Part shown: positions 30,872 through 60,473 of the stretch, piece by piece
How positions within the stretch are numbered: position 1 is the first letter of the stretch
How the letters are laid out: every line of letters begins with the position of its first letter
NCBI GenBank assembly: GCA_965262915.1
Contig: OZ253564.1
Span: 3,392,001 to 3,456,000, forward strand
DNA length: 64,000 nucleotides
DNA from: Candidatus Spongiisociaceae bacterium
Lineage (GTDB): Bacteria > Actinomycetota > Acidimicrobiia > Spongiisociales > Spongiisociaceae
Direction of reading: 5' to 3'
Made by a program: the position numbers and the translations under genes
The notes under the pieces: generated by a model
Told to the model about the DNA's origin: nothing
The model's database searches: none
The model's input: only the letters and a program-made list of their open reading frames with translations

Positions 30872-31924
30872 ATGCCGCATGTGATGACGGTGCGTGGCCC
30901 GATCAACCCGTCCGAGTTGGGCCCCACGATGACACACGAGCACATCTTCCTGGATGTCCGCCACGCCTGGAGTCCTTCCGCAGAGATTCTCGACACCGAG
31001 GCGGGCACCCGGCCCTTCGAAACCCGGCTGGCGGGTGTTAGTCGCTGGAACCAGTCGGCCTACCGGAGCAACCTCGTGCAGAGTCCCGAGGACGACTACG
31101 AGCTCATCTCCGAGGAGGTCGCCGAGTACGTGCACGCCGGCGGTGGCGCCATCGTCGAGTTGACCGTGATCGGCCTCAACCCGGAACCCGAGGCACTGGC
31201 GCGGCTCTCGGAAGACCTGGGTGTGCATATCGTCGCTGGTACCGGGTTCTATGTGAGCGCCCTCCACCCCCCGTGGGTGCAAGGGATGAGCGTCTCCCAA
31301 CTGACCGAGTTTCTCCGCAAGGAAGTCACCGAGGGCATGGGGGGCACCTCGGTCCGGCCCGGCATCATAGGTGAGATAGGCACGTCCGAGACGCTGTTCG
31401 AAGTGGAGGAACGTGTGCTACGGGCATCCGCTCGCGTAGCGGTCGAGACCGATACCCCGATCAACGTCCATTGCCATCCTCCGGCTCTCGAAGTCGTCCA
31501 GCGCATCCTCGACATCCTCGAAGGCGAAGGCCATCCCCTGGGTCGCACCTCCCTCTCACATCTCGACGAGATCACCGACCTCGACTACCACCGCTCGGTC
31601 CTCGAACGGGGCCCGCTGGTCGGGTTCGACAGCTTCGGACAGGACGGCTACTTCGAACCGACATGGAAGTCGAAGAGTGACCAGGCCAAGCTGGAGACCA
31701 TGCTCGCGCTGGTCGAGGCCGGGTTCGAAGATCAGCTGCTGATGTCCCAGGACATGCACAAGAAGCACTACCTGCTCCGCTACGGAGGTCTCGGTTACAA
31801 CCACGTCCTCGCCCGGGTCGTTCCCCGGATGAAGGCCACGTACGGCGCCGGCGCCGGGCTGATCGACAAGTTGCTGGTCACCAACCCGGCGAGGTTGCTG
31901 ACCAGGAATTCCGAGGCCGCATAG
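30872..31924 (+). CDS. Phosphotriesterase-family (PHP-like) metallohydrolase
   Basis: THEHI, GIIGEIG, NVH, SHLD, MSQDM, YGGLGY. Confidence 0.88.
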   Translation: MPHVMTVRGPINPSELGPTMTHEHIFLDVRHAWSPSAEILDTEAGTRPFETRLAGVSRWNQSAYRSNLVQSPEDDYELISEEVAEYVHAGGGAIVELTVIGLNPEPEALARLSEDLGVHIVAGTGFYVSALHPPWVQGMSVSQLTEFLRKEVTEGMGGTSVRPGIIGEIGTSETLFEVEERVLRASARVAVETDTPINVHCHPPALEVVQRILDILEGEGHPLGRTSLSHLDEITDLDYHRSVLERGPLVGFDSFGQDGYFEPTWKSKSDQAKLETMLALVEAGFEDQLLMSQDMHKKHYLLRYGGLGYNHVLARVVPRMKATYGAGAGLIDKLLVTNPARLLTRNSEAA

Positions 31925-32017
31925 AAATCCTATGCCGTTCTGCGGGTATCGGGCGGTGCGCCCCGCGCATAATGGAACCGGTGGGTTTTGCCGCCTAATC
32001 GGGAACCGTGGAGGTTG

Positions 32018-33607
32018 ATGGTGCTGGTCGGATACGTAAGCGACGAGTTCTACGTGGCGATCCCGAATGTCGAGATCGAGTTCACTAGTGGAACGGCCTC
32101 GCTCCGGGTCCGTTCCCGAGCATCCGGGTCGGTTCATGCTGACCTGGAACCGGGCACCTACCGCGTCTATCTGACCCGTCGGGGGTATACCCCCAAATGG
32201 GTCGACATGGAGGTGCTGGAGGGGCAAGTCCACCACTTCCGGCTGCTCTCGGACAACCTGAGCGGGTACGTGTGGCCGAAATGGACCAGGTCTGGCGAGA
32301 TCGGCCAGGTGCGGCTCCATTCGCCGCACGACTCGGTGGTGACCCTCTGGCGATATGGTTGGGAGCGTGAGTTCATCGCCAAGCTGGGTCACTTCAGCGA
32401 CGAACCGCGCGGGGCATACGCCCAGATCCTTCCGGACGGGGACGTCACCCAGTCGGGGGTGAGGTGGAGCGACCATGGTTACTCGTACGCTGAGGTCGAC
32501 CCGAGGGTATACGTCGAGGCGCCTGCCCGTTCCGGGCTCTACTACTTCCACGCCAGGGACGCAACCGGTGCCTTCTTCTCTTTTCCATGGATAGTCGCGC
32601 CCCGGCAGCGGCGCCACCGGCTTGCCGTCCTGGCGTCCAACATCAACTGGAACTGCTACAACCACTACGGCGGACGCAGCAACTACGTGTCCGCGATCAC
32701 CCTCCCCCTTCGACCCCACTTCAACTTCCGGCAGGAGGAGGTCTACTACACCGATCCGGCTCTGCAGCCGTGGATCGCGGACGAGTACGACCCGCTGTCG
32801 TTCGACCGTCCCGAACCGCTCAACATGACGGAGGAGAACGGAAAGATCACCGACCCGATGGAACGCCGTGGCGAAGAACACGTTGCGCCGGCCGAATGGC
32901 GCCTGCTCGGATGGCTAGAGCGGGAAGGCTTCGATTACGACTACCACGCCGAAACCCAACTCCACTTCGACGAGATCTCCCTCGAGGACTACGAGGTGCT
33001 GATCATCAGCACCCACCCCGAGTACTGGTCACGCAAGATGTATTACCAGGTCAAGTCGTGGGTGTTCGACGGCGGCGGCAAGCTAATGGTGCTGGGAGGC
33101 AACAGCCTCAACTGCGAGGTGGAGTTCCTGGACGGGACGACGATCACCGTGCGTAACAACGACCACCGCAAGCGCCCCCCCGGCTACGAAAGCCGGTTCG
33201 GGACGCGGCACGAATCAGAGGCCCACCTAACCGGAGTGGTAACCACCCACACCGGCTACGAGACCGGCGCCCCCTACCGGGTGATCGACCCTGCGCACTG
33301 GGCTTTGGCGGGAACCGGCTTGGCCGAGGGTGACTTCTTCGGCACGGAATCACTCGACCGGCGGGCTCCGGGCGGCGCCTCGGGGCACGAGACCGACAAG
33401 CTCACTCCCTCGTCCCCGCCGGGAACCAGACTCATCGCCAAGGGCACCAACCCCGACGAGGGCGGCGCCGAGATGGTCCATCACCGGACCCCGAGCGGCG
33501 GTGAGGTGTTCTCGGTCGGTTCCATCTCCTACACCTGCTCGATAGCGGTCGATGACCACATCTCGACGGTAACCCGGAACGTTCTCGAACGGTTCCTGGG
33601 CTCGTGA
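32018..33607 (+). CDS. N,N-dimethylformamidase large(beta)-subunit-family protein with N-terminal carboxypeptidase-regulatory-like domain
   Basis: RSGLY, NWNCYNHYGGRSNY, LSFDRP, WLEREG, STHPEYWS, GGNS, GHETD, GGEVFSVGSI. Confidence 0.78.
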   Translation: MVLVGYVSDEFYVAIPNVEIEFTSGTASLRVRSRASGSVHADLEPGTYRVYLTRRGYTPKWVDMEVLEGQVHHFRLLSDNLSGYVWPKWTRSGEIGQVRLHSPHDSVVTLWRYGWEREFIAKLGHFSDEPRGAYAQILPDGDVTQSGVRWSDHGYSYAEVDPRVYVEAPARSGLYYFHARDATGAFFSFPWIVAPRQRRHRLAVLASNINWNCYNHYGGRSNYVSAITLPLRPHFNFRQEEVYYTDPALQPWIADEYDPLSFDRPEPLNMTEENGKITDPMERRGEEHVAPAEWRLLGWLEREGFDYDYHAETQLHFDEISLEDYEVLIISTHPEYWSRKMYYQVKSWVFDGGGKLMVLGGNSLNCEVEFLDGTTITVRNNDHRKRPPGYESRFGTRHESEAHLTGVVTTHTGYETGAPYRVIDPAHWALAGTGLAEGDFFGTESLDRRAPGGASGHETDKLTPSSPPGTRLIAKGTNPDEGGAEMVHHRTPSGGEVFSVGSISYTCSIAVDDHISTVTRNVLERFLGS

Positions 33608-33638
33608 CCCCGCTCCCCCGCACCCTTCGGGCCGACGC

Positions 33639-35657
33639 ATGACCCGGGTTCTGCTGTTCGGGATCGATCAGATGATCCTGCCCCTGACCGAACACCTGAT
33701 GCAGCAGCGCACCTACCCGAACCTGGAACGGGTACTGCACGGCGAAGGAGCGGTCTCGGAGGCCATTCCATGCTGGCCGGCTTGGACACCCACCAACTGG
33801 GCGACGATCGCCACCGGAGCGGATCCCGGAGCGCACGGGGTGATCAGCTGGGAGGTGTCACTGCCCGATGGCCGGTGGCTCACCAGCTTCCATTCCTCGG
33901 CGTTGCGTACCGAAACCCTCTGGGAGGCGGCCGACCAGGCTGGGTTGAAGGTCGGGCTGGTGCACTACCCGGCGTCGTGGCCGTCCCGCCTGCAGAACGG
34001 GTTCGTGATCGACGGGTGTGCCCTGCCGGACTACGGTCAGACTCCTTTCGAACTGGCATCGGGCCGGGGATACTGCACCGACGCGGACCTTCCCATCTCC
34101 GACCGGGTCGCCTTCGATTCTGAGTCCCGATGGGCGGGCCTCGGCAGCGGGGTGGAACCTCGATCCGGAACGCTGGAAATGGTTGCCAAAGTGGATGGTG
34201 CTGTTACCCCCGTCCCGTTCGCGGTCACCGGCGACAACGGCTACGAGCGCATCGTCCTCAGCCTCACCCGAGACGGCAACGACGTGCTGGCCACCGCATC
34301 GGTCGGTGAATGGAGCGACTGGTTCGTGGTCAGGGTCGGTTCGATCGAAGGGCACACCCGGATCCGGCTGATCAGCTGCGACGCGCGGACCGGCGACTTC
34401 CATCTGTGGCGCAGCCAGATCCTTCCCGTCAACGGTCCCTCTGAACCCGGCTGGATCCTCGAGGACCTGACCCGACGGCTCGGTCCCTACCAGGAACACG
34501 TCAGCGAGATCGCTGCGCTCGGGGGCGCTGCCGACTACGAGACGGTTGCCGACGAGGCCCGCTACCAGATCCGCTGGTTCGCTCACGCCATGCTCGAGAT
34601 GCTGGACCGTTACGGATGCTCGCTGGTCGGGTTCCATTGGCACTGGCTCGACTGGGTCAACCATCTGCATCTCGGGCATGTGGACCCCGACTGGTCCCAG
34701 TACCGAGCAGATGCCGTGGACGAACACCTGGAGGTGATCCACGACGCCGTGGACATGATCGACGAGGCCCTTGGCATCGTCCTTGACGGCCTACGGGACG
34801 ATGACCTTCTCATCCTGGTGGCCGATCACGGGAACCTGCCCGTGGACCGGATGATCAACTTCCGGCGCTACTTCGTGGAAACCGGTCGGACGTTCCTCGT
34901 CGACCCGGACGGTTCCATCGACGAGGCCAATACGGATTGGGAGCGGACCCAGATCTACGTTCCCGACCGCCTGAACGCTCCCGAGATACGCCTGAACCCG
35001 CGGCTGGACCGTGACCGGGCCCGGTCGGTGATGGCTGAGGTGATACATGACCTGCGTACGCTTGTCGATCCAGTGACCGGCATGACGCCGATCGCGCTAG
35101 CCCTGCCCAAACAGGAGGCCGCTCTGCTCGGATGGTACGGTCCGGACGCGGGCGACATCCTGGTGATCCTGGAGGCCGGATACGTGTGGGATACCGAAGC
35201 CCATATCGACGCCGAGATCATCGACGCGGCTGTCAAAAGCGACGTAGCGCCGCACTGGCACGGCGCCATACCGTCTCCGGTGTTCTCGGACCATCCCCCA
35301 CCCGAGACAGCCGCCCATGGCCACGTCCTCCCGACCGCCGCGACATCATTGTCGTCGAATATGGCCATCCTGGCCATGATCGGAGGACCCGCGAGCACTG
35401 GCTACCGCCGCGATCCTGAGCAGCTAGGTCCCGTATGGCTCAAGGACGTAGCGCCGACCATTGCCCACGTGCTTGGAATCGAGGCACCCCTCCACAGCTC
35501 GGGCGGGGTTCTGTACGACTTCCTGGGTCGGGATCCCGGAACCATGGAGCGGGATGGGGACCCACCGTCGCACTACCAGATACCGAGGGATGTCAAGGAC
35601 GCTCAGGTCGGGATGTACGACTTCTCCATTCTCGACTCGCCATCCGCTGATCGTTGA
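33639..35657 (+). CDS. Alkaline phosphatase superfamily, nucleotide pyrophosphatase/phosphodiesterase-like
   Basis: LFGID, WTPTNWATIATG..PG.HGV (Thr nucleophile), DWVNH, VADHG, DVAPTI. Confidence 0.8.
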   Translation: MTRVLLFGIDQMILPLTEHLMQQRTYPNLERVLHGEGAVSEAIPCWPAWTPTNWATIATGADPGAHGVISWEVSLPDGRWLTSFHSSALRTETLWEAADQAGLKVGLVHYPASWPSRLQNGFVIDGCALPDYGQTPFELASGRGYCTDADLPISDRVAFDSESRWAGLGSGVEPRSGTLEMVAKVDGAVTPVPFAVTGDNGYERIVLSLTRDGNDVLATASVGEWSDWFVVRVGSIEGHTRIRLISCDARTGDFHLWRSQILPVNGPSEPGWILEDLTRRLGPYQEHVSEIAALGGAADYETVADEARYQIRWFAHAMLEMLDRYGCSLVGFHWHWLDWVNHLHLGHVDPDWSQYRADAVDEHLEVIHDAVDMIDEALGIVLDGLRDDDLLILVADHGNLPVDRMINFRRYFVETGRTFLVDPDGSIDEANTDWERTQIYVPDRLNAPEIRLNPRLDRDRARSVMAEVIHDLRTLVDPVTGMTPIALALPKQEAALLGWYGPDAGDILVILEAGYVWDTEAHIDAEIIDAAVKSDVAPHWHGAIPSPVFSDHPPPETAAHGHVLPTAATSLSSNMAILAMIGGPASTGYRRDPEQLGPVWLKDVAPTIAHVLGIEAPLHSSGGVLYDFLGRDPGTMERDGDPPSHYQIPRDVKDAQVGMYDFSILDSPSADR

Positions 35658-35675
35658 ACGACGCCAACGGTTGGC

Positions 35676-36566
35676 TCACTGCCAATCGGGGAAGGGCTGC
35701 TTCCAGTTCTCGTAAATGATCGCGTCCTGTATCTCCTTGGGAATGGTCGGGAGCCTCGTACCTTCCACGATATCGTTGATACGCCTGAGGCCGTTGATCA
35801 CGTTGGTGATCGTCCCCGACGGGTAGTCGGAGGCCAGCAACAGCTTGTGGTCGACCCCGTACTCCATGGCCGTGACCATCGCCTGCCAGTAGCGCCATGG
35901 CCGGTAATGCACAGCCGATATGTCCGCATACATGTTCGGTGACTTGCGGATCAGGGCGATGAGATCCTCCTCCCAGGGATGTCCCAAGTGGGCGATGATC
36001 ATCCTCAGGTCGGGAAACTCCATGGCCACATCCTCCAGCAGGAGAGGCAGAGCCCAGCGCAGCCGGGCACGGCTGGGGAACGTAGTGCCCTGATGCCAGA
36101 TGGTCGGGATGCCGTATCCGGCACACCTGCGGAAGAATTCCCAATAGCTACGGTCGGTCGGATCGAAGTGCTGGTACGTAGGACCGAGCTTCAGACCGCT
36201 GAGCCCTAGATCCTCCACACAGTGGGTGAGTTGGTCGATCGCGTCCGAAGCCGTGGGGTTCACCGACGCCCATCCGATCAGCTTGTCCGGATGGGTCGCC
36301 ACGTACTCGGCTATCAGGTGGTTGGGAACCACGATGCCCGTGGGCTCCGCCTGTATCCCGAACACCACAACCTTGTCCGCCGGCGCCGAAGCCTCCCAAT
36401 GGTCCTCAGGCCGCGAATCGTACGAGTGGAGGTCGAGATGAGCGCTGTGCACCTCGCCCCCGGAGTGCCTCATCTTGACCAGCTTGGACGCCAGGGCTTC
36501 CTGGGCCGCCTCCTCGGACCAGTGATCCGGGTACCAACCTATGTGGGTGTGGACATCGACGATCAC
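35676..36566 (-). CDS. Amidohydrolase family (Amidohydro_2)
   Basis: IVDVHTH, GLKLGPTYQ, WHQG, IAHLGHPW, YADISA, LLASDYP. Confidence 0.88.
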   Translation of the reverse strand: MIVDVHTHIGWYPDHWSEEAAQEALASKLVKMRHSGGEVHSAHLDLHSYDSRPEDHWEASAPADKVVVFGIQAEPTGIVVPNHLIAEYVATHPDKLIGWASVNPTASDAIDQLTHCVEDLGLSGLKLGPTYQHFDPTDRSYWEFFRRCAGYGIPTIWHQGTTFPSRARLRWALPLLLEDVAMEFPDLRMIIAHLGHPWEEDLIALIRKSPNMYADISAVHYRPWRYWQAMVTAMEYGVDHKLLLASDYPSGTITNVINGLRRINDIVEGTRLPTIPKEIQDAIIYENWKQPFPDWQ

Positions 36567-36630
36567 GGCTGCGGTTCCTCCCTCGACAGACACCGGTTCG
36601 TCCTGTAGACCGGGTGGAGTAGGAGTGAGA

Positions 36631-37417
36631 TCATGGCGCGATCACCCCGTCGGGATACCGGTCGAAGACCTTCACGTCGTGGATCGGGACGATATGCCGG
36701 GCCGTCGCCCGGACCCTCGCGTAGCAGTCGAGCGCCTCGTACATGTTCTCGCACAACCCCAGCATCTCGCCGTCCTCCACATTCTCGTAGAAGAAGTACG
36801 AGTCGGAGATGGCGACCGTCCCGACCGCGGTGTCCACCTCCACGACGATCGACTCCCGGTGATGCGCCCCCGACCACCAGGTACGGAGTCCCGGAGCGAT
36901 CTCGTCCTCGTCTTCCAGCAGTCGCACCCGATCCCAGCTGTCGGTCACGAGATCGACCAGGGTGTCCTTGGGGATGGACCGCCAGCGGTCGTCGTGCGGA
37001 TGGTCGTGGGTGGTGTGGAAATGGACCCAGCCTCGCTTGGCGATGCAGATCTGGGCGGATCGGAACTTGTGGAGCGTTCCGGTGGTGTACAGCTCCAGCG
37101 GGGTAAGTAACACGTGGGTGATGTCATCGGGCGTCAGGCCAACCGTTTCCAGTGCACCGGTCATGTAGTGGTCCGGTTGCCTCTTCAAGTCGCCCTTTGG
37201 CGCGTCGTGGAGGTACCGCATCTTCGGGCCAGCCTTCCTCGACCATGGTGGTGTCATCCGGAGGGGAGGTGTTGACGAGAGCCGTTAACCCTCCCCCTCG
37301 AATCAGAGTCACGTTGAACCCGAGCGGATATACCTTGTCCCAGTGGCTCATCCAGAAGACCTCGGGTCCTGAGATCAGCGATTCGCCCACGCTCAGGACT
37401 CTCACAGAATACTCCAT
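36631..37417 (-). pseudogene. MBL-fold (AHL-lactonase-like) protein, +1 frameshift at ~37227; paralog of 57458-58243
   Basis: ORFs 37124-37417 and 36631-37257 together match the intact copy; TGG CCC GAA GAT here vs TGG CCA CGG ATG in the paralog. Confidence 0.85.
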
Positions 37418-37444
37418 AACACTGCTCCTTTCGGAGACGACCGT

Positions 37445-38440
37445 TCATCGAGAGAGGTCCACCGGCTCGCCGCTCCGGGCCGACTCATCCAACGCCAGCG
37501 CGACCTGCAGTGCCGCCCGGGCGTCCTCCAGGGACACCGGCCAATCGCGCCTGCCCCGTACCCAGCCCAGGAAATGGCGGTCCTCGATCGCCACCGAGCC
37601 CGCCATCGTGCCTCCCACGTCGAACACTCCATGCGTCCCGAGCCATCTGTTCTCCCCGAGCGAGTAGACCCTGGTTACCGGGTCGCGCATCTCGACGTAT
37701 CCGGCGCCTTGGGTACCGAAAACCGCTAGGCGGTAGTCCCCCGCCAGTCCCGACCGGCTGTTCATGACCCAGTTGAACTCCACCAACCCAACCGCTCCGC
37801 TCGTAAAGCGCAGGGTTGCGACGACCGCATCCACCGCACCCTCCCCTAGCGACGACGTGGACGCGGGCATGGCTTGTACCCGAGCGATGTCCCCCGCCAG
37901 CCAGCGGAGCAGGTCGATGTCATGGACGCCCACCTCTACGGGCAGGGTCGTCCGGTGTGCCAGCAGGCGTCCCTCGAACGCCGGAACGTTCCGGCGGGCG
38001 CTCACGCTGACCAGAGCACCGATGTCCCCTGCCTTCACGCTCCTGGCCAGGGCCACGTAGTCGGGCTCGAAGCGCATCGTATGTCCTACCGCTAGGCGAC
38101 CTCCCGTTTGGCGGGTAATTCCAATGATCGCATCGGCGTCGTCCAGGTCATGGGCGATCGGCTTCTCGCAGAACACCGGCAGGCCGGCCTCGAGGCAGCG
38201 GGCCACGACCGGAAGGTGGTGCTCCTGGGGGGTGCAGACGAAGACCGCCTCGACCATTTCGGTGGCTAGCAGCCGGTCCAGATCGACGAAGAAGCGCACA
38301 CCGGAGGGCAACCTACTCGCCACATCGGAATCCAGGTCGCTACATGCGACCAGGTGCGCTTCGGGAAGAGCGTCCAGGACCTGGACATGGACCGAACCCA
38401 TCATGCCGACACCGACCACCGCACACCGGACGGGCTCCAC
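37445..38440 (-). CDS. Gfo/Idh/MocA oxidoreductase
   Basis: VVGVGMMG, FCEKP, GHTMRF, GVHDID. Confidence 0.9.
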   Translation of the reverse strand: MEPVRCAVVGVGMMGSVHVQVLDALPEAHLVACSDLDSDVASRLPSGVRFFVDLDRLLATEMVEAVFVCTPQEHHLPVVARCLEAGLPVFCEKPIAHDLDDADAIIGITRQTGGRLAVGHTMRFEPDYVALARSVKAGDIGALVSVSARRNVPAFEGRLLAHRTTLPVEVGVHDIDLLRWLAGDIARVQAMPASTSSLGEGAVDAVVATLRFTSGAVGLVEFNWVMNSRSGLAGDYRLAVFGTQGAGYVEMRDPVTRVYSLGENRWLGTHGVFDVGGTMAGSVAIEDRHFLGWVRGRRDWPVSLEDARAALQVALALDESARSGEPVDLSR

Positions 38441-38522
38441 TCGTACCTCCTTCCGGTGCCGTCATTTGCACACAGCACGCTATCGACTGTTCGGGACCGG
38501 TGCTCGGCTGGCCGGCTCCCGG

Positions 38523-38551: not shown

Positions 38552-38600
38552 CATGCCACGCAACGCCGTTGCGATGTGCGCAACGCACGGGGAGGGTTGG

Positions 38601-51165: not shown

Positions 51166-51212
51166 TCGCTAGCGCGGATCCGCCTCTGACAGACATCCGG
51201 CTTCCCGCTTTC

Positions 51213-53294: not shown

Positions 53295-53827
53295 CCGGAC
53301 GCTATCTGGTGATGCCGCGGGGTATCAACGTCGGGACCCGCAATCGGGTACCGATGGCGGGGCTCAGGTCGAAGCTGGCCGACGAGGGCTACTCCGACGT
53401 GGCGACCGTCCTGGCGAGCGGGAACGTGATCGTTTCGGCCGAATCGGATCGTCCCGACGAGGTCGCCGACGCCATAGAACGGTTGCTCAGCGACCACTTC
53501 GACGTAAACGTTCCCTGCGTCGTCCGAACGGCGAACCAGGTTCGGGGGATACTCGACCGCAATCCGCTGCACGAGGTCGTGTCCGACCCGTCGCGCTACT
53601 TGGTGAACTTCCTCTCGGAGGAGCCCGATCCCGAAGTGGTAGCGGCGCTGCTGGAGGAGGACCACAGCCCCGAGGCCATCGCGATCGAAGGCACCGAGGC
53701 ATACGTGTGGACTCCAGATGGTGTCAAGGCGATGACCCTCTCGCACGCGTACCTCGAGAAGCGGTTCGGCGTCGTCGCCACGGCGCGCAACTGGAACACC
53801 ATGACGAAGATCGCCGCCAAGTTCTGA
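53291..53827 (+). CDS. DUF1697 family protein
   Basis: RGINVG..NRVPMA.L, VATVLASGNV, TARNWNT. Confidence 0.85.
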   Translation: MTGRYLVMPRGINVGTRNRVPMAGLRSKLADEGYSDVATVLASGNVIVSAESDRPDEVADAIERLLSDHFDVNVPCVVRTANQVRGILDRNPLHEVVSDPSRYLVNFLSEEPDPEVVAALLEEDHSPEAIAIEGTEAYVWTPDGVKAMTLSHAYLEKRFGVVATARNWNTMTKIAAKF

Positions 53828-53833
53828 CTTGCA

Positions 53834-54880
53834 TCACCCGCGATGCTCTCGCCTCTCCACGCACCGCGCTACGACGGCGATGTGTTGGCCCTGCTGCACC
53901 GGCGCACGCCAGGCCGCGGCGATCAGGTAGCCGTCCACCCCGGCGCGCACCCGCCAGGGATCCTCGTCGATACGGTGAAAGTCGTGGAGCAAGCCGACCA
54001 CCTGGCCGACGACGACATGCGACCCGCGCTCGAGGAGCGGCTCGTAGTGTCCTGGCCACGGCGCCCGAACGTAGCAAGCCGGGTCGACCGCCTCGACCAA
54101 CCGTTGGGTTCGGGCCGCATGATGGGCTACAGGCTCCACATCGACGTTCATCTGACCGGAGAGAACAGCGGCCGCGATCACACCGTGGCGGGCGTAGCGG
54201 ACACCATCGGGACTCAGCGCACCTCCCCAGCCGAACTCGCCGCCCACCGAGATCTTTCCATCTCTCTCGGCGTCGCTGGTGAGCAATCTGGGGGTCAGGT
54301 CCTGATAAGTGAGAATGAATGGCACGCCGAACCACCGGGCCATCTCGAGCATCGCCGCAGCCTGCCGCTCATCGGGGACCCGATGAAAGCTCGTCAGCGG
54401 TGCGAACCGGGCCACATCGCCTCCGGCGTGGAGGTCGATGACAACGTGGACGTGGGGCCAGATGCTCGTTCGCACGAAGTCGGCTATGCGATGGGTGATC
54501 CCTGAGACGCCCGCGAGGCGACCGGCTCCGTCGACGAAGGCTCGGTTGAGGTTGACACCGTCGGCGTCGACGCTCTCCCTCCGGCCCGCCCGGAAGGCCG
54601 GGGGACTCAGAACCGGAACCAGCACAACCCTTCCGGTCACTGTGGCTTCGTCGATCTCCCGGAGAAGGTGCTTGAGGGCTACCGGGCCCTCGTACTCGTC
54701 ACCATGGGTGGATCCGAAGGCCACCAAGCCCTGTCCATCCCGGGCATCGGACCCGACCCAGACCGTGAGCGGTACCAGCCATTCACCCCAGATGGAGTCA
54801 TGCGGAAGGCCCACCCAATAGTCACGGCGTCCGGGCGATTCAAGGTCCAAGCCGCCGGGGGTGACCATCTGCCTAGCCAT
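53834..54880 (-). CDS. Succinylglutamate desuccinylase/aspartoacylase (AstE/AspA, M14) family
   Basis: STHGDEYEG, NLNRAF, IDLHAGG, GEFG. Confidence 0.88.
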   Translation of the reverse strand: MARQMVTPGGLDLESPGRRDYWVGLPHDSIWGEWLVPLTVWVGSDARDGQGLVAFGSTHGDEYEGPVALKHLLREIDEATVTGRVVLVPVLSPPAFRAGRRESVDADGVNLNRAFVDGAGRLAGVSGITHRIADFVRTSIWPHVHVVIDLHAGGDVARFAPLTSFHRVPDERQAAAMLEMARWFGVPFILTYQDLTPRLLTSDAERDGKISVGGEFGWGGALSPDGVRYARHGVIAAAVLSGQMNVDVEPVAHHAARTQRLVEAVDPACYVRAPWPGHYEPLLERGSHVVVGQVVGLLHDFHRIDEDPWRVRAGVDGYLIAAAWRAPVQQGQHIAVVARCVERREHRG

Positions 54881-54955
54881 ACACCCTCCGGGACTGCCGA
54901 ATCGAACAACTTCGTGATCGCCCTATCGTCGAACACCTGTCGGCCGGCCCGCTAG

Positions 54956-55181
54956 ACGAGTAGTTCCAAGGGATCGGATCGGCAATGATGCTTGTACTAT
55001 CGGTAGCCAACGACATACAACACATCCTGTGACTCCTTTTGGCGCGGGGTCCCGATTCATTCCCGATCTCGAAGGCGCCTCGGCGCGACCCGGAACTCGG
55101 ATACCGCTACGGAGGCCGGAAAGCAACGCAATCTACCGCTAACTCAAGACTGTTTGCTCCGGACCCCTTGGAACTAACCAT
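54956..55181. mobile_element. 226-bp MITE-like element, family B
   Basis: TIRs ACGAGTAGTTCCAAGGGATCGGA / TCCGGACCCCTTGGAACTAACCAT; CTAG on both sides (54952-55, 55182-85). Confidence 0.8.
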
Positions 55182-56354
55182 CTAGTTGACACGGTGGTGC
55201 TCCACGAACTCGATATCCACGGCCACACCGAGCCCCGGCGCGTCCGGTACCGACAGCGTGCCATCTGCGTTCAGAGACATCGCCCCGCAGGTCACACCGC
55301 GGCTCAGCCGACTCTGCGCGGCGTTGAACTCCACGTAACGCCCACCGGACAGGGTCGACATGAAGTGAACGCTGTAGGCATGCAGGAGATCGGAGATCCA
55401 CGAGTGGGTGATCACATCGACATCACGCTCGGCAGCCAACGCGGCGACACGGGTTGCGACCGTGAGACCTCCGCAGCGGGTGAGATCCGGCTGCAGGATA
55501 TCGACGCAGCCGCCATCCAGGTATCGCTCGAAATCCCAAATCGTGGTGAGTTGCTCGCCGGCAGCGACCAGCACGGGGCTGTGCTCCCGAACGTAGGCGT
55601 AGTCCAGCAGGTACTCGGGATGTATGAAGTCCTCCACCCAAACAGGGTTGAACGGGGCAACCCGCTCGCACAACTCCAGGTTCTCCCGGCGAGTTCGGAA
55701 GCGAAGGCCGTCCGACCATCCGATGCCGTACCATCCGGGGTCGATCATGAGATCCCTGCCGGGCCCCAGAGCCTCCCGGATCGCTGCGAGGATCTCGACA
55801 TCGCGACCCGGGTCCTCGCCGAAAGGACCCCAACCGAACTTCGCCGCCGGGTAGCCGGCTTCGACGAATCTGCGGGCTGCCCGGTGGTTGTCCTCGGGGT
55901 CGTCCCAGAAGAGGCTCGAAGCGTAAGCCCGCAGCGACTCTTGCTTGCGACCACCGAGCAGTTCGGACAGCGGCAGGGAGGCGGCTTGGGCCTTGATCGA
56001 CCAGAGGCAGTTGTCCACCGCCGATATGCAATGGAGCGCGATCCCCCTCCGTCCGTAGTAGGTGGTGCCCACGAACATCTTGTTCCAGAGCCGTTCGGTG
56101 TCCGACGGATCCTCGCCCAGGAGGAGGTCTCTGAGGGTGTGGAAACCCATCGGGCCCATGCTCACACCCTGCACTATCGAGGGCACCGCCGTGGTGAGCG
56201 TCTCCACCTCGGACCATCCCACGAGGCCTTCGTCCGTGTCGACACGTATCAGCGCCAGCCAGTCACCCTGGTCGGTCGCGTCGGTTTCACACTTGCGCGT
56301 GCCGTAGGTCTCGTCGCCGCGCAGGAGGATACATTCGACGTCAGTGATGCGCAC
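55182..56354 (-). CDS. Enolase superfamily, mandelate racemase subgroup (acid-sugar dehydratase-like)
   Basis: VDTDEGLVG, ISAVDNCLW, MIDPG, WVED, AAGEQ, LQPD, ITHSW, PGLGV. Confidence 0.86.
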   Translation of the reverse strand: MRITDVECILLRGDETYGTRKCETDATDQGDWLALIRVDTDEGLVGWSEVETLTTAVPSIVQGVSMGPMGFHTLRDLLLGEDPSDTERLWNKMFVGTTYYGRRGIALHCISAVDNCLWSIKAQAASLPLSELLGGRKQESLRAYASSLFWDDPEDNHRAARRFVEAGYPAAKFGWGPFGEDPGRDVEILAAIREALGPGRDLMIDPGWYGIGWSDGLRFRTRRENLELCERVAPFNPVWVEDFIHPEYLLDYAYVREHSPVLVAAGEQLTTIWDFERYLDGGCVDILQPDLTRCGGLTVATRVAALAAERDVDVITHSWISDLLHAYSVHFMSTLSGGRYVEFNAAQSRLSRGVTCGAMSLNADGTLSVPDAPGLGVAVDIEFVEHHRVN

Positions 56355-56436
56355 CGGTCGGCCGCCTTTCCTTCGCGCGCTGGTTACCGGACCGATTCTC
56401 TCATACGGCAGGCGCCGGGGACCCCCTGCCCAGCCC

Positions 56437-57426
56437 TCAGGCCTGGCCGATGGCCATCGAGGGCGTCGGTGAGCAGTCGACGGCGGATTGGAGCAGGTCG
56501 AAGAGGCGGTCCACCTCGGCGGTCGTCTCCGGGTCGAGCCGGAAACCAACCGGACCCCGGACACGGGTGTTCTCGAATACGCCCTGCCTGACAAGGAGGT
56601 GTTTCTCGACGGCGATGAAGCCGTCGAGTCCGGACTGCATCGACACGAGCGCAGTAAGCGGTCCGTTGATGGCGTTGATGCGAGCCTCATCACCAGCCTC
56701 CAAGGCATCCCACAGGGCAACGATCGCCCAGCAGACCTCCGCTCCCGGCATCGTCCCGACGATCCCCCGCTTGTAGCTATCGACCAAGGCGATGCCGCCC
56801 GATCCCTCGAACACCCGGGCCGCCCCTCCCGTCGCATCGCGCAGTTCAGTGAGTCTGGGTCCTATGGGGACCGCCTCCGGCTTGAACAGGACCCGCCCTC
56901 CGTACTCGTCGAGTAATCGAGCCTGGAGGCCGATGGACATGGGCCGGCCCACATAGCCGCTGGCGTCCTGAATGACCAGGGGAACTTCGGTGGCGTCGAG
57001 CAACGACCGGTAGTAACCGGCGAGCTGATCATCAAGGCAGGGCACGGTCGTCGGTGGTATCGCCATTAGGGCGGACGCTCCGATGCTCTGGGCGTGGAGC
57101 GCGTATTCGACGGCTACCTTTGTGCTCTCCGCCCCAACGCTGACGATCACCGGTCCGTGGGCCAGACCGGTATCACATGCCATTTCGGCCAACAGGCGGC
57201 GCTCCTCGCCCGACAGCCGCAGGGTCTCGGACACCATCGCCATGACGATGCCATCGACTCCGTGTCCGTACATCCATCGAATCTCGTGCTCCAGCACGTC
57301 CCGATCGATGGAGTCGTCGTCACAGAACGGCGTCTGGAACACGGGGAAGACCCCGGATAGGGTCTCTGATCGCTCGGCTGACTCCGATCCGGCGCCCCGG
57401 CCGCTCATCGGCGGCAGGCTTCGCAT
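56437..57426 (-). CDS. Dihydrodipicolinate synthase/N-acetylneuraminate lyase family (non-DapA)
   Basis: GVFPVFQTPF, AMVSE (in place of GTTGE), VIQD, Schiff-base Lys in LFKPE, GTMPG. Confidence 0.82.
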   Translation of the reverse strand: MRSLPPMSGRGAGSESAERSETLSGVFPVFQTPFCDDDSIDRDVLEHEIRWMYGHGVDGIVMAMVSETLRLSGEERRLLAEMACDTGLAHGPVIVSVGAESTKVAVEYALHAQSIGASALMAIPPTTVPCLDDQLAGYYRSLLDATEVPLVIQDASGYVGRPMSIGLQARLLDEYGGRVLFKPEAVPIGPRLTELRDATGGAARVFEGSGGIALVDSYKRGIVGTMPGAEVCWAIVALWDALEAGDEARINAINGPLTALVSMQSGLDGFIAVEKHLLVRQGVFENTRVRGPVGFRLDPETTAEVDRLFDLLQSAVDCSPTPSMAIGQA

Positions 57427-57457
57427 GTCGGGCAGGCGGAGGCCGTTGTATCAGAGG

Positions 57458-58243
57458 TCACGGCGCGATCACCCCGTCCGGATAGCGGTCGAAGACCTTC
57501 ACGTCGTGGATGGGCACGATGTGCTGGGCGGTGTTCCGCACCCTCTCGTAGCACTCCAAGGCTTCGTACATGTTCTCGCAGAGTCCGAGCATCTCACCGT
57601 CCTCCACGTTCTCGTAGAAGAAGTAGGAGTCCGAGATCGCCACCACACCGACCGCGGTATCGACCTCGACCACGATCGACTCGCGATGGTGAGCGCCCGA
57701 CCACCAGGTGCGCAGTCCTGGCGCAATCTCGTCCTCGTCCTCCAGCAGGCGAACCCTATCCCAGCTGTCCGTGACGAGATCAACCAGGGTGTCCTTCGGC
57801 ATCGACCGCCACCGATCGTCGTGAGGATGGTCGTGGGTGGTGTGGAAGTGGATCCAGCCCCGTTTGGCGATGCAAACCTGCGCAGTCCTGAACAGGTGGA
57901 GGGTTCCGGTGGTGTAGAGCTCCAACGGAGTCAGCAAGATATGGGTGATATCGTCGGGAGTGAGGCCGACGGTCTCCAGCGCGCCGGTCATGTAGTGCTC
58001 CGGACGTCTCGTGAGGTCACCTTTCGGAGCGTCGTGGAGGTAGCGCATCCGTGGCCAGCCCTCTTCGACCATCGTGGTGTCGTCGGGAGGAGAAGCGTTT
58101 ACCAGAGCGGTTATGCCACCTCCCCGTATCAGGGTGACGTTGAACGCCAAGGGGTAGACCTCGTCCCAACGACTCATCCAGAAGACCTCGGGCCCCGCGA
58201 TCAGCGATTCGCCCACGCTCAGAACTCGCACCGAATACTGCAT
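57458..58243 (-). CDS. MBL-fold (AHL-lactonase-like) protein lacking HxHxDH
   Basis: GLTPDDITHILLTPLELYTTG, EIAPGL, GAHH, ISDS, VPIHD. Confidence 0.75.
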   Translation of the reverse strand: MQYSVRVLSVGESLIAGPEVFWMSRWDEVYPLAFNVTLIRGGGITALVNASPPDDTTMVEEGWPRMRYLHDAPKGDLTRRPEHYMTGALETVGLTPDDITHILLTPLELYTTGTLHLFRTAQVCIAKRGWIHFHTTHDHPHDDRWRSMPKDTLVDLVTDSWDRVRLLEDEDEIAPGLRTWWSGAHHRESIVVEVDTAVGVVAISDSYFFYENVEDGEMLGLCENMYEALECYERVRNTAQHIVPIHDVKVFDRYPDGVIAP

Positions 58244-58327
58244 GCGTCTCCTCCTCTCCTATGAGTCGCTTTTCGCCGATCGCCTCTCCCGACTCCGCGG
58301 CTCGTGCCGGTGCTCACGATAAGCAGG

Positions 58328-59311
58328 TCAGTGGCCCGGACAGCCAGATTCACGGTCCTGTCCACCGATCACTTCAGAATGCCCCGGCGACACTCCCAAG
58401 GTCCAACCTTCACCGGCCTGGTGGATGACTCCCCCGTAGACATCCGACATGTTCCCCAACTCTTCCTCGTCGATCCCGGCGCTGATACTCGGCCCGATAT
58501 GGGTCAGCACCAGTGCGCCGACATCGGCGGCCCGGGCCATCCTGGCGGCGCCCAGCGTGCCCGTCTGGCCGGGAGCCTCTCCGCTGGCCACCATCGCCGC
58601 TTCCGTGTCCCAGCACATGGACACCAGCACATCGGCGTCTCTGGCAAGTTCGACAACCTCGTCGCACGGTTCGGTATCGCCCGTGTAGACGACAGAACTC
58701 GAACCCACCCTGATCCGGTACGCATTGCAGTCGAGAAAGGGCTGGACGTGGCGGGCCAGACCGGCACTGAACTCGATATCGCCAATGACGAAGTCTTGTC
58801 CAGGATCGACCTCCCGTACCAAGGGGTCGGGAGGGAGGCGCGGCAACTCGCCGCCTCGGTTGAGGTATACGGCGTGGCTGGGCGGCGCCTCCATCCGCGC
58901 ATTCAGATCGGGCCAGAAGACGCCTGATCCGGCACCGAACAACTTCTCGACGAAGTCGCTGGTCGGTGAAGGCCCGTATATCGACAGCTCATCGATGAGC
59001 CCGGCGCCCTGATCCCATCTGCTCAGAAAGAATCCGGGGAAGCCGGCGGTGTGATCGAAGTGATGATGGGTCAGAACGACGGCATCCACATCCGTCGGTT
59101 CGAAGCCCGATCCGACGAGACGGCGGGTGACTCCGGGGCCTGTGTCGAGCAGAACCGCGGTCGTGCGGCTCCGGACCAGGATCGCGGTTCCCCACCTCGC
59201 CGGAGTGGGCGTCGGGGTACCGGCCAACAGAACCGTGACTTCCATCTCGGACGCCGACTCCTCGCCGCCCGTTCCGACAACACCTGCAGGGCGGGGCCGG
59301 GGGATGGCCAT
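58328..59311 (-). CDS. MBL-fold hydrolase, RNase Z/arylsulfatase-like
   Basis: LAGTPTP, LLDTGPG, THHHFDHT, VYTGDT, LVLTH; start may be 59245. Confidence 0.82.
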   Translation of the reverse strand: MAIPRPRPAGVVGTGGEESASEMEVTVLLAGTPTPTPARWGTAILVRSRTTAVLLDTGPGVTRRLVGSGFEPTDVDAVVLTHHHFDHTAGFPGFFLSRWDQGAGLIDELSIYGPSPTSDFVEKLFGAGSGVFWPDLNARMEAPPSHAVYLNRGGELPRLPPDPLVREVDPGQDFVIGDIEFSAGLARHVQPFLDCNAYRIRVGSSSVVYTGDTEPCDEVVELARDADVLVSMCWDTEAAMVASGEAPGQTGTLGAARMARAADVGALVLTHIGPSISAGIDEEELGNMSDVYGGVIHQAGEGWTLGVSPGHSEVIGGQDRESGCPGH

Positions 59312-59471
59312 CTACACCCTCCTTTGGTTTTGGTTTCGATCAGAGATCCCCACGGTCGGAACCCTGCCCGTCGTGGAACCCGCCGGGTTCACCGTCGCAA
59401 TGCCAGACCGGGCCACGCCTAGGTACACATCGGGACTCCGTTGGTCACCGGCGGATACGACCAACGTGGGG

Positions 59472-60473
59472 TCAGCTATCGAATTCGGCAAGGGAAACAG
59501 GACGGCCTTGCTCGATGGATCTGTCCATGGCCAGAGCGGCCACCAAAGCCGCCCGTGCATCATGAAGGCTCAAGGGCCACTCCCGACCGTCGCGTACCCG
59601 GCTGAGAAAGAAAGCGTCCTCGGAGGGTAGCGCCCCGTAGGGTATGCCGTTCGGGTACGAGTAATACCCGGTATGGATGTGCTCCAGGCCGTCAACGCTG
59701 AACACCACCGCAGGCGAGTCGCGCGTCTCCACATACGCGCTCCCCCGAGTTCCGAAGACAGCCAGACGGTGGTCGCTGCGGAGTCCGGAATCGAAGGGCA
59801 GGATCCAGTTGTGGTCGAGAGCGCCGACAGCCCCTGAGGTAAACCGCACGGTGGCCACCGCCGCATCTGGCCCGGGCCCGACAACCGCGTGTTGCGCGGC
59901 CTCCGCATATACTCGCTCGATATCTCCCGCGAGCCACCTCATCACATCGAGGTCGTGAATCGCCATCTCCTGCGGTACGGTCGTACGTCCCGAGATGATC
60001 CTGCCCTCGTAGTCGGGCGCATTCCATCGAGCCGACACATGTACGACTTCACCGAGCCTTCCCTCTGCCGCCGCCTGATGGACCGCTACATAGTTGGGAT
60101 CGAAGCGAAGGGTGTGACCTATGACCAGGCTCCCGGGGGTCGACCCGTCAAGCTCCATCATCCGGTCGGCGTCACCGAGCGAAGAGGCAAACGGCTTCTC
60201 GCAGAAGACATGCAACCCGCGGATCATCCCCGCCTCGACCACCGGCAGGTGCATCTGTTGGGGTGTGCAAACCCAGAGAGCGTCGAGACCTTCTGTGTCA
60301 AGTGCTTCATCGAGGTCAGCTGTGAAGCGGGTCCCTGCAGGTACTCCAGAAGCCGCTGCCGGATCGGTGTCGCAGACCACGGCGAGATCGGCTATCGGGT
60401 TCGCAGCCAGAATTCTGGCGTGTTCACGACCGATCATCCCGTGACCGACGAGTGCGCATCGGACTGGTTGCAT
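59472..60473 (-). CDS. Gfo/Idh/MocA oxidoreductase, paralog of 37445-38440
   Basis: VGHGMIG, FCEKP, GHTLRF, AIHDLD. Confidence 0.9.
   Translation of the reverse strand: MQPVRCALVGHGMIGREHARILAANPIADLAVVCDTDPAAASGVPAGTRFTADLDEALDTEGLDALWVCTPQQMHLPVVEAGMIRGLHVFCEKPFASSLGDADRMMELDGSTPGSLVIGHTLRFDPNYVAVHQAAAEGRLGEVVHVSARWNAPDYEGRIISGRTTVPQEMAIHDLDVMRWLAGDIERVYAEAAQHAVVGPGPDAAVATVRFTSGAVGALDHNWILPFDSGLRSDHRLAVFGTRGSAYVETRDSPAVVFSVDGLEHIHTGYYSYPNGIPYGALPSEDAFFLSRVRDGREWPLSLHDARAALVAALAMDRSIEQGRPVSLAEFDS

Follow-up and report, generated by a model that had tools for sequence, protein, structure and literature searches.

A probable catabolic gene cluster, possibly for an amine-bearing, N-acylated polyol- or sugar-like compound in a Candidatus Spongiisociaceae bacterium and related Actinomycetota

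The window analysed here is the whole 64,000-nucleotide (nt) stretch at positions 3,392,001 to 3,456,000 of contig OZ253564.1 from a Candidatus Spongiisociaceae bacterium of the Acidimicrobiia. Its subject is the region at 30,872-60,473, which an earlier note had flagged as a ~30 kb catabolic island of three operon-like blocks built around a dimethylformamidase (DMFase)-like enzyme. Open reading frames (ORFs) were re-annotated with Pfam and NCBIfam and their start codons then refined; all of the families named in that note were recovered at or near the places where it had put them. We divide the region into a core (30,872-49,950), a debris zone (~49,950-53,830) and a distal block (53,834-60,473), with four transcription-unit-like blocks, three of them in the core, in addition to the debris zone. 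The GC content is flat (0.61-0.67) over the window and within the region alike, and the window holds no tRNA that could border it; by composition, the region does not stand out as an island. No integrase was found among the window ORFs that were given family scans, and an Rfam scan of the window found no riboswitch within the cluster, its sole match being a SAM riboswitch outside it.

The core opens on the plus strand with a phosphotriesterase (PTE)-family gene (30872-31924; Pfam PTE, E 4.6e-62), the left edge of the cluster, followed by the gene of the DMFase-like protein (32018-33607, in an ORF that opens at 31988) and a gene of the NPP/alkaline-phosphatase superfamily (33639-35657; Pfam Phosphodiest, E 4.6e-27). 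The minus strand then carries an Amidohydro_2 gene (35676-36593; Pfam E 2.5e-30), a frameshifted gene of a divergent metallo-beta-lactamase (MBL)-fold family (36631-37417; weak PDB matches, E ~1e-7, and atlas matches) and a Gfo/Idh/MocA oxidoreductase gene (37445-38440). From 38601 to 49950, a long plus-strand unit with tightly spaced or overlapping genes encodes a U32-like TIM-barrel protein (38601-39524), a creatininase-family hydrolase (39622-40413; Pfam E 1.7e-57), an M20 deacylase of the ArgE/DapE type (40410-41582), whose start ATG at 40410 overlaps the stop codon of the preceding gene, a second Amidohydro_2 protein (41612-42460; Pfam E 9.5e-33), two enolase-superfamily proteins of the MLE subgroup (42469-43587 and 43619-44743), a lipoprotein substrate-binding protein (SBP) of the PotD/PotF/YdcS fold (44863-46122; Pfam SBP_bac_6 and SBP_bac_1), a PotB-like permease (46158-47087), a PotC-like permease (47084-47896, from family scans), a PotA-type ABC ATPase (47893-49035) and, as its last gene, an acetamidase/formamidase-family protein (49045-49950; Pfam FmdA_AmdA, E 3.9e-25).

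Within the flagged region, only the PotA-type ATPase passes an NCBIfam cut-off (TIGR01187, 383.2 versus 355.6 bits). The first Gfo protein scores best with inositol 2-dehydrogenase (155 versus 355 bits), the M20 protein with DapE-ArgE (130.8 versus 217.6 bits), the PotB-like permease reaches 158.9 bits against the PotB cut-off of 348, and the FmdA-family protein 51.6 bits against the 500 of the formamidase equivalog NF045496. The creatininase-family protein lies under all NCBIfam cut-offs (MftE 119.8/172, creatininase 94.2/235, IolN 64.2/245). Since the equivalog cut-offs are missed, the terms formamidase, creatininase and DMFase are family labels only. The Thermotoga-type inositol route, which pairs a Gfo protein with the creatininase-family IolN, was set aside on the IolN score of only 64/245.

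The DMFase-like protein and 15 homologs were aligned, and the alignment was the query of a scan of one genome per GTDB species. Confirmation succeeded for 582 of the 603 candidate stretches; the 80 best loci (L001-L080) were retained with up to 10 kb on each side and compared with 27 window proteins by local tblastn (E<=1e-10, query coverage >=50%). According to their labels as deposited, L001, L002, L004 and L006-L008 are metagenome-assembled genomes (MAGs) of Acidimicrobiia, L005 belongs to Streptosporangiaceae, L009 to Actinomycetota and L003 to a 'bacterium'; L010-L080 (53-58% identity) are MAGs of Poribacteria, Latescibacterota, Planctomycetota, Bryobacterales/Acidobacteriota, Gemmatimonadota, Anaerolineae and Opitutales. 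The DMFase-like gene occurs in all 80 loci, the MLE genes at 42469 and 43619 in 26 and 20, each Amidohydro_2 gene in 12, the PTE, the M20 and each Gfo gene in nine, and the creatininase-family gene in eight; the U32-like gene and, from the distal block, the AstE-family and dehydratase-like enolase genes were matched in seven each (the enolase at 55182 at 24-30% identity only), PotA in six, the SBP, each FmdA-family gene and the MBL-like gene in four, NPP, PotB and PotC in two, and the DHDPS-family gene and the MBL-fold gene at 58328 in none. The PTE, M20, Gfo and U32-like matches are confined to L001-L009, as are those of the creatininase-family gene, save for one 33% match in L047.

The core recurs in all nine of the closest loci, and three gene orders can be told apart among them. 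L001-L004 and L006 share the order of the window, the nearest being 87-89% identical to it. In L005 and L009, a GntR gene is followed on one strand (+) by the U32-like, creatininase-family, M20, Amidohydro_2, MLE, MLE, Gfo, MBL-like, DMFase-like, PTE, RraA-like aldolase and second Gfo genes, which places ten of the families in one co-directional run. L007 and L008 show (DHDPS), PTE (-), EamA (-) and DMFase-like (+), then on the minus strand Amidohydro_2, FmdA, PotA, PotC, PotB, SBP, IclR, MLE, (MLE), Amidohydro_2 and M20; the FmdA gene thus adjoins PotA there as well. L005 and L007-L009 stand at ~60% identity, with rearranged gene order and different flanks. The flanks also differ among the closer loci: L003 has the left flank of the window (SBP, permease, DUF2339, glyoxalase), L001 and L002 have TenA, HyuA, HyuB, a luciferase-like gene and three alcohol dehydrogenases, and L004 and L006 a restriction-modification system, and the left cluster edge is the PTE gene throughout. 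Orthologs of the first Gfo gene are found in L001-L006 and L009, and those of the first Amidohydro_2 gene in L001-L004 and L006-L008; the copy in L034, 68% identical, adjoins the DMFase-like gene. The NPP gene is present in the window, L001 and L002 only, and L003, L004 and L006 have a 0.4-0.6 kb gap at its place; it is a lineage-specific insert. An aldolase, RraA-like or of the dihydrodipicolinate synthase (DHDPS) family, accompanies the cluster in L005, L008 and L009. A megablast search of 30800-49950 against plasmids gave no match. Thus, the co-clustering in other genomes that had been expected was found for 30.9-49.9 kb in L001-L009, in three gene orders and with differing flanks, and covers the PTE, DMFase-like, Amidohydro_2, Gfo, U32-like, creatininase-like and M20 genes, the MLE pair, the Pot-type importer and the FmdA gene; in the other phyla most of the genes are absent beside the DMFase-like gene.

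The best PDB matches of the PTE-family protein are 9efa/9efb, deposited as 'Phosphotriesterase-related protein' (PTER; 9efa E 6.6e-57, full length), followed by 3k2g (E 8e-53). PTER reportedly acts as an N-acetyltaurine hydrolase. We take 9efa to be the structure of PMC12873775, and residues were mapped with a +2 numbering offset. The excerpted part of that paper gives H27, H29, E174, H206, H235 and D303 as metal ligands, Tyr131 as the oxyanion residue, His305 as the proton donor and Arg209, Arg238 and Tyr268 as sulfonate binders (PMC12873775), and an excerpt of a second paper states that PTER also cleaves N-acetyl-beta-alanine, not the alpha or gamma analogues (PMC13311154). The window protein keeps the metal ligands (H22, H24, E168, H200, H230 and D294) and Y127, as do its cluster orthologs; A205 and E233 replace Arg209 and Arg238. 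The window protein and its nine cluster orthologs all have Glu at position 233, and position 205 is A, T, E or Q, and Arg in none. From these residues, we infer that 30872-31924 encodes a PTER-type, binuclear-metal enzyme that cleaves amides with a non-anionic leaving group. N-acetyltaurine use was set aside, as both Arg residues are absent and no taurine genes were seen. A second PTE-family gene of the window (11197-12270) is 37% identical to the first and keeps the metal ligands, with Leu in place of E233 and Cys in place of H296 (the latter equivalent to PTER His305); it belongs to another operon-like run (3866-12270, +), whose other genes encode a class IV aminotransferase, a family-5 SBP, two permeases of the Dpp type, two ATPases and an EutQ-like cupin.

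The DMFase-like protein combines a CarboxypepD_reg with a DMFA2_C domain (PF20254, E 2.7e-54, residues 174-520). In a single-sequence PDB search, its sole solved relatives were the entries of N-acetyl-(R)-beta-phenylalanine acylase (8huy/8i5a, E 1.8e-11), and in a profile search the acylase scored E 5e-24 versus E 1.4e-19 for the DMFase large subunit (6lvb); the protein is nearer to the acylase than to DMFase. As far as the excerpted text of PMC7686228 goes, the Fe(III) ligands of the Paracoccus DMFase are Y399, Y440 and E521, and H519 is essential. Profile alignment to 6lvb sets Y224, Y267, E345 and H343 of the window protein against Y399, Y440, E521 and H519, and these four residues are invariant in 16 of 16 sequences. 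The protein has 539 amino acids versus 775 in DMFase, and the alignment begins at about chain residue 357. The gap on the upstream side of its gene measures 64 or 94 nt, according to which start codon is used, and that on the downstream side 31 nt. Neither contains an ORF, no small-subunit query having been searched, so that a small subunit is probably not encoded alongside. From these alignments, the product of 32018-33607 is classed as a short-form DMFase/beta-aminoacylase-like protein and a putative mononuclear-iron amidase. The family comprises at least 3503 homologs (E<=1e-10, among 8000 scored). Literature searches on PF20254/DMFA2 returned DMF-degrader papers only, and those on beta-phenylalanine acylase, also combined with Burkholderia, nothing relevant. 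Against plasmids, tblastn of the protein matched four records, and the neighbourhoods in Microvirga (49.5%) and Haloferax (44.9%) are unrelated. The latter, an archaeal homolog on the Haloferax gibbonsii plasmid pHGLR3 (L082, 4338-22784), has as neighbours an IclR regulator, two TPP enzymes, a class IV aminotransferase, a family-5 SBP ABC system, an M81 peptidase and an aldehyde dehydrogenase.

The best PDB relatives of the MLE pair are 1jpm (L-Ala-D/L-Glu epimerase), the 2p88 protein and 3jva (dipeptide epimerase), with E-values of 8e-52 and 1e-49 for the best matches of the first protein, 1jpm and 2p88. Dipeptide epimerases bind the ammonium group of the dipeptide through a D-x-D motif; D321-F-D323 of YkfB aligns to D-I-L in the protein encoded at 42469 and to D-L-I in that encoded at 43619, so that the second Asp is replaced by Leu or Ile. 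K163 and K165 (KxK) and the metal ligands D194, E220 and D245 are kept in both. In the excerpt of a preprint, the MLE subgroup is defined by catalytic Lys residues at the ends of strands 2 and 6 (bioRxiv 10.1101/2022.03.03.481873). The sixth-strand Lys of YkfB, K268, aligns to Y269, and Tyr stands at this position in both core proteins (motif L-Y-P-G-K in the second) and in all 12 cluster orthologs examined (L003-L007 and L009). Tyr-type MLE genes also lie beside the DMFase-like gene in L021, L023, L031, L045, L047, L048, L063, L072 and L080; the MLE-like neighbour in L028 has Asn, and those of the Latescibacterota-type loci L052, L062, L075 and L079 are of the ordinary Lys type. When the Tyr-type profile was compared with 1.84 billion representatives, the best 150 matches comprised 64 with Tyr, 75 with Lys and 11 with another residue or a gap, Tyr being dominant in the top 40. 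By alignment, Tyr-type sequences form a real branch of the MLE subgroup, on which no paper was found in a literature search that covered few subscription journals. The core pair is accordingly assigned, by its aligned residues, to the racemase/cycloisomerase subgroup with an atypical Tyr and not to the acid-sugar dehydratases; the acid-sugar-type dehydration that had been proposed for the region retains a candidate only in the distal gene at 55182-56354.

Among the remaining core proteins, the second Amidohydro_2 protein has an uncharacterised protein, BB4693 (3irs, E 5e-8), as its sole PDB match. The U32-like protein matches Pfam Peptidase_U32 at 24.4 bits (cut-off 22.4) over profile positions 7-83 of 233, and 28 of its 30 atlas matches are U32 clusters; it has 3080 homologs. 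Its AlphaFold model (pLDDT 88) appears in Foldseek to resemble only generic TIM-barrel and class II aldolase structures (TM 0.45-0.5). U32 peptidases, including the Fe-S hydroxylases UbiU and UbiV, require conserved Cys ligands, and no invariant Cys was found in 26 sequences of the U32-like protein. The divergent MBL-fold family is so classed by 17 of 30 atlas matches. The copy at 36631-37417 is 89% identical at the nt level to the intact in-cluster gene of L001 and L002 and is, on these identities, its ortholog; the copy at 57458-58243, with 82-83% nt identity to all of them, is an older paralog. The gene is absent from L003, L004 and L006.

The SBP belongs to a small family (69 homologs, E<=1e-10) with a lipobox in the alignment consensus. 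Its score is 47.8/582 bits with the PotD model and 29.3/636 bits with that of PotF, so that the fold alone matches. In Foldseek, the predicted structure (pLDDT 85) appears nearest to YdcS, PotD, PotF and SpuD/E (13-22% identity), and lower-ranked fold matches suggest binders of GABA, mannopine/DFG and agropinic acid (MotA, AgtB). Opine or Amadori compound catabolism, prompted only by the low-ranked matches to MotA and AgtB, was set aside.

Based on this evidence, we propose that the genes at 30,872-49,950 are functionally coupled and form a catabolic cluster, found in Acidimicrobiia and related Actinomycetota, for an amine-bearing, N-acylated polyol- or sugar-like compound, a statement to which we assign, as worded, a probability of roughly 0.6. 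That the core genes are functionally coupled is, taken alone, highly probable; the assignment of the substrate to cationic or zwitterionic, N-acylated, amine-bearing sugar- or polyol-like compounds is tentative and somewhat less likely than not. In the proposed scheme, the PotD-type lipoprotein would bind the compound and the ABC importer would take it in. Its amide bonds would be cut (N-deacylation) by the PTER-type, DMFase-type, M20, creatininase-family and FmdA-family enzymes, and a carbinol would be oxidised by the Gfo protein. The Amidohydro_2 and MBL-like proteins might serve to open lactone or lactam rings. From the resulting carboxylate, the Tyr-type enolase pair might then take the alpha-proton, leading to epimerisation or beta-elimination, and an aldolase would cleave the product, RraA-like or DHDPS-like in other genomes and possibly that of 56437-57426 here. 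The description of these families as hydrolysing C-N bonds was too broad, since the Amidohydro_2, PTE and MBL-fold families include lactonases, and for a deformylation step, which had also been suggested, we found no specific support. The claim that the gene set matches no described pathway holds: none was found in the literature, including searches on Acidimicrobiia, sponge and creatininase topics and on clusters of enolase, creatininase and amidohydrolase genes.

Several observations weigh against the proposed N-acylated-amine cluster. No enzyme of the flagged region reaches an equivalog cut-off, and no obvious polyamine-fate genes were found. The window ORFs scanned contain no regulator, and the window no IclR homolog, whereas relatives carry IclR or GntR. 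The in-cluster MBL-like gene has a net +1 nt near 37223-37226 versus its paralog at 57458-58243 and runs out of frame after ~65 codons, being either a pseudogene or an assembly error. H296 of the PTER-type protein is present in the window, L001-L004 and L006; its place is taken by Gly or Cys in L005 and L007-L009. Furthermore, counted by independent arrangement, the nine loci come to about three, and most flagged-region genes are absent from the 71 remaining loci. L001-L006 stop at the MLE genes, so that the importer and the FmdA gene can be checked only in L007 and L008, the start of the SBP gene being seen in L003; the SBP of L005 and L009 is only 41-42% identical and lies on the opposite strand. 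Lastly, the DHDPS-family gene at 56437-57426, the MBL-fold gene at 58328-59311 and the dehydratase-like enolase gene have no orthologs near the cluster elsewhere, which makes the lower pathway in this genome conjecture.

The genes concerned lie to the right of the core. At 49,950-53,830 there are an enolase-superfamily fragment (50646-50891, -; blastx to residues ~90-167 of the first MLE protein only, the tail of MR_MLE_N), the C-terminal remnant of a second PotA (51216-51686, +; blastx to PotA residues 213-370, 158 residues at 45% identity, TOBE_2 only), a second acetamidase/formamidase-family paralog (51706-52632, +; FmdA_AmdA) and DUF3224 and DUF1697 genes (52716-53827, +; Pfam), which were matched in none of the 80 loci and are not part of the cluster. 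A paralogous transporter operon has decayed here and left these remnants beside unrelated DUF genes; no pathway design underlies the zone. The three intact and one broken enolase-superfamily genes that had been reported are present, the broken one covering only residues ~90-167. Similarly, the two 'formamidases' are FmdA_AmdA family members, with 51.6 and 48.8 bits against the cut-off of 500, the second copy following the PotA remnant.

The distal block is read on one strand (-) as a second Gfo/Idh/MocA oxidoreductase (59472-60473; Pfam), a canonical MBL-fold (RNase Z-like) hydrolase (58328-59311; Pfam Lactamase_B and Lactamase_B_2), the intact MBL-like paralog (57458-58243; weak PDB matches and atlas), a DHDPS-family protein and putative aldolase (56437-57426; Pfam E 9.7e-20, DapA 62/206 bits), an enolase-superfamily protein resembling acid-sugar dehydratases (55182-56354; galactonate dehydratase 155.8 versus 311 bits) and an AstE/AspA-family deacylase-like protein (53834-54880; Pfam, DoeB model 166 versus 402.7 bits). 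Of the three MBL-fold proteins counted earlier, that at 58328-59311 has a Pfam match; the others, at 36631-37417 and 57458-58243, are MBL-fold only by weak PDB and atlas matches. The block and the core have only two paralog families in common, Gfo and MBL-like. We regard 53.8-60.5 kb as a separate operon of sugar-acid type, which may supply lower-pathway steps. The reading of the earlier note, in which the whole of 30,872-60,473 serves one pathway, with import and amide and ring hydrolysis upstream and dehydration and aldol cleavage in the distal block, is unlikely. In its favour, the second Gfo protein is 61-62% identical to the one that closes the compact L005/L009 operon, and the protein encoded at 57458 has 75-76% amino acid identity to an in-operon gene product of the same loci; its intact gene lies in the distal block and the in-cluster copy is broken. 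In L021, L052, L057, L062 and L075, about two lineages, the DMFase-like gene has an AstE homolog (59-61%) at a distance of 1-4 kb, and an aldolase accompanies the cluster in L005, L008 and L009, 56437-57426 being the only candidate aldolase of the window. Nevertheless, apart from these Gfo and MBL-like genes the distal block has no orthologs inside the L005/L009 operon; neither the DHDPS-family protein nor the hydrolase of 58328-59311 has a match among the 1069 ORFs of the 80 loci, the dehydratase-like enolase has 24-30% matches only, and the DHDPS genes near the cluster elsewhere show no blastp similarity to 56437-57426 (E<=1e-5). The NPP insert (2/80 loci) and the 3.9 kb of debris and DUF genes likewise break up the 30 kb. 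In a tblastn search of the distal enolase and DHDPS-family proteins against plasmids, identity was 39% at most, and the best DHDPS locus, on a Streptomyces plasmid, was without synteny.

The opposite extreme, a patchwork of unrelated small operons adjacent by descent, with no common substrate even within 30.9-49.9 kb, we consider quite unlikely. It would account for the three strand switches, the lack of a detected regulator, the variation of the NPP and MBL-like genes among close relatives and the absence of most of the genes beside the DMFase-like gene in the 71 loci of other phyla. It would also fit the many paralog pairs that self-comparison and all-against-all searches revealed inside the region: 36627-37417 and 57454-58243 (82% nt identity), the FmdA-family genes at 49045-49950 and 51706-52632 (70% amino acid and 69% nt identity), the Amidohydro_2 genes at 35676-36593 and 41612-42460 (46% amino acid identity), the Gfo genes at 37445-38440 and 59472-60473 (49%) and the core MLE genes at 42469-43587 and 43619-44743 (38%). 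However, co-clustering persists at ~60% identity, in two rearranged orders and between unrelated flanks, and ten families are co-directional in L005 and L009.

Salvage of peptides or of N-acyl or D-amino acids, in which epimerisation of dipeptides or N-succinyl-amino acids by the MLE proteins precedes deacylation by the M20 or AstE-family enzyme, on the model of murein-peptide recycling or of the N-succinyl-amino-acid racemase pathway, would agree with 1jpm, 2p88 and 3jva as best relatives of the MLE pair and with the presence of both deacylase types. It is very unlikely: the subgroup-defining sixth-strand Lys is Tyr in both MLE proteins and all cluster orthologs, the second Asp of D-x-D is Leu or Ile, the importer is polyamine-type and not Dpp/Opp-type, and the Gfo, Amidohydro_2 and MBL-like genes are left unexplained. 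Degradation of xenobiotic dimethylformamide or formamide by a DMFase and then formamidases, as the Pfam names DMFA2_C and FmdA_AmdA and the conserved Fe site might suggest, can practically be dismissed, given a protein of 539 versus 775 amino acids without the N-terminal ~350 residues or a small-subunit ORF beside it, an acylase that outscores DMFase, at least 3503 homologs with 56-60% identity in MAGs of many phyla, formamidase scores of 51.6 and 48.8 versus 500 and no methylamine-utilisation genes seen in the window.

The surroundings of the DMFase-like gene in other phyla were described by clustering the 1069 ORFs of the 80 loci and annotating representatives. The most frequent neighbours are MLE (24 loci), RraA-like aldolase (16), Gfo (14), SDR (12), sulfatases (12 and 8), Amidohydro_2 (10 and 8), MFS (9), PhyH (8 and 6), DHDPS (6), GD_AH dehydratase (5) and hydantoinase A/B (4-5). 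Of 79 loci, 40 carry an MLE, RraA-like, DHDPS, KDPG-aldolase or GD_AH-dehydratase gene no more than 7 kb away from the DMFase-like one; since eight Poribacteria and seven Latescibacterota loci each have a common synteny, the independent lineages number nearer ten. Bryobacterales and Planctomycetota show strings of DMFase-like, MFS and Tyr-type MLE or of DMFase-like, MFS and DHDPS genes, and L034 reads HyuB, HyuA, an unassigned gene (x), DMFase-like, Amidohydro_2 and DHDPS. In Poribacteria (L010-L019, about 6000-16000), a conserved co-directional run comprises sulfatase, RraA-like aldolase, Gfo, DMFase-like, PhyH dioxygenase, aldo-keto reductase, nitrilase-superfamily hydrolase and a 259-amino acid protein, a candidate for a different pathway around the same amidase family.

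A more specific reading, possible and rather doubtful, is that the short-form DMFase-type iron amidase and the Tyr-for-Lys enolase constitute an undescribed two-step module, N-deacylation followed by metal-assisted alpha-proton abstraction and beta-elimination, built into a 17-gene Acidimicrobiia pathway (16 intact genes and the frameshifted one; 18 with the NPP insert) for an N-acylated amine outside all described pathways. The second step would be a deamination or dehydration, independent of PLP, of an amino-acid-like or amino-sugar-acid intermediate, and in Actinomycetota, Planctomycetota and Bryobacterales/Acidobacteriota the module would be met again next to genes for aldolases and sugar-acid metabolism.

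Other features of the window lie outside the flagged region. The SAM riboswitch (29328-29410, +; RF00162, 69.5 bits versus a gathering score of 44.4) is upstream of ORF 29586-30218, whose product has an OsmC-like C-terminal half, an unusual gene behind an S-box. Directly to the right of the flagged region, a purine module (60592-64000, +) encodes an adenosine deaminase (passing TIGR01430), the FAD and 2Fe-2S subunits of a xanthine/CO-dehydrogenase-type enzyme and a Bmp/PnrA nucleoside-type SBP. A DUF222 and HNH endonuclease gene (16105-17394, +), of a type common in Actinomycetota, may mark a mobile or selfish element in the left half of the window, and a direct repeat of ~105 nt (12354-12461 and 14339-14439, 78% identical) surrounds a DinB-family gene (13646-14242). 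At 212-2662 (-) there is a large S13 D-Ala-D-Ala carboxypeptidase-family protein with an SLH domain and weak leucine-rich-repeat matches, and at 2939-3505 (-) a 188-amino acid ORF that matches only the last third of ABC_tran (profile positions 81-136), possibly a truncated ATPase or one with a mis-set start.

The interest of the cluster is that three large enzyme groups for which no assigned natural function was found meet in it: the ~530-amino acid DMFase-like proteins (at least 3503), the charge-reversed bacterial PTER-type proteins and the Tyr-type MLE proteins (at least 64 clusters at 50% identity). It gives them a shared context with a dedicated SBP of a small family, which is open to ligand screening. 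With the substrate identified, thousands of genes from uncultivated Actinomycetota, Planctomycetota, Poribacteria and Latescibacterota would gain an annotation. Such work could also bring to light a route of organic-nitrogen turnover that has gone unrecognised and yield new catalysts for amide cleavage; were the substrate an ordinary N-acetyl amino sugar or an acetylated polyamine, the result would be a useful and routine annotation.

Compared with known systems, all of the parts belong to known superfamilies and a catabolic operon is of a known kind; for the combination, the short DMFase-type protein, the charge-reversed PTER pocket and the Tyr-type MLE pair, our searches found no match in print. 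The lower pathway of protocatechuate 4,5-cleavage resembles L005 and L009 at the family level, with Gfo, Amidohydro_2 and RraA-like aldolase genes in one operon that recall what we take to be the LigC, LigI, LigJ and LigK families. This likeness is a lead only: that pathway has no room for many amidases or an amine-type importer, and it was set aside as no ring-cleavage dioxygenase was seen. The non-phosphorylative sugar-acid route consists of a dehydrogenase, a lactonase, an enolase-type dehydratase and a DHDPS-type aldolase, and the distal block has all four families on one strand; however, it reaches no equivalog cut-off, and its lactonase candidates are MBL-fold proteins. The importer is like PotABCD and YdcSTUV in its order of SBP, permease, permease and ATPase, in the passed PotA cut-off and in the SBP fold, and differs in an SBP of a small family that lies below the PotD and PotF cut-offs and is 16-22% identical to solved binders.

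At the level of single enzymes, the PTE-family protein shares with PTER the full-length alignment to 9efa, a bridging Glu instead of a carboxylated Lys, the six metal ligands and the oxyanion Tyr; unlike PTER, its nine cluster orthologs are without both sulfonate-binding Arg residues and four of them without the His305 equivalent. The MLE pair shares the fold, KxK and the three metal ligands with the epimerases of its subgroup and differs in the sixth-strand Tyr for Lys and the missing D-x-D motif. With the DMFase large subunit (6lvb), the window protein has in common the DMFA2_C domain, the iron ligands (two Tyr and one Glu) and the essential His; it lacks the ~350 N-terminal residues (domains I and II), has a CarboxypepD_reg-like N-terminus instead, and its gene stands among catabolic sugar and amine genes, not in C1 metabolism. 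The closest solved relative by sequence is the protein deposited as N-acetyl-(R)-beta-phenylalanine acylase (8huy/8i59/8i5a), for which no small-subunit chain appears under that name in the structure listing; it has 772 amino acids, of which only the C-terminal ~350 residues align with the window protein, and its substrate is a target of synthetic chemistry.

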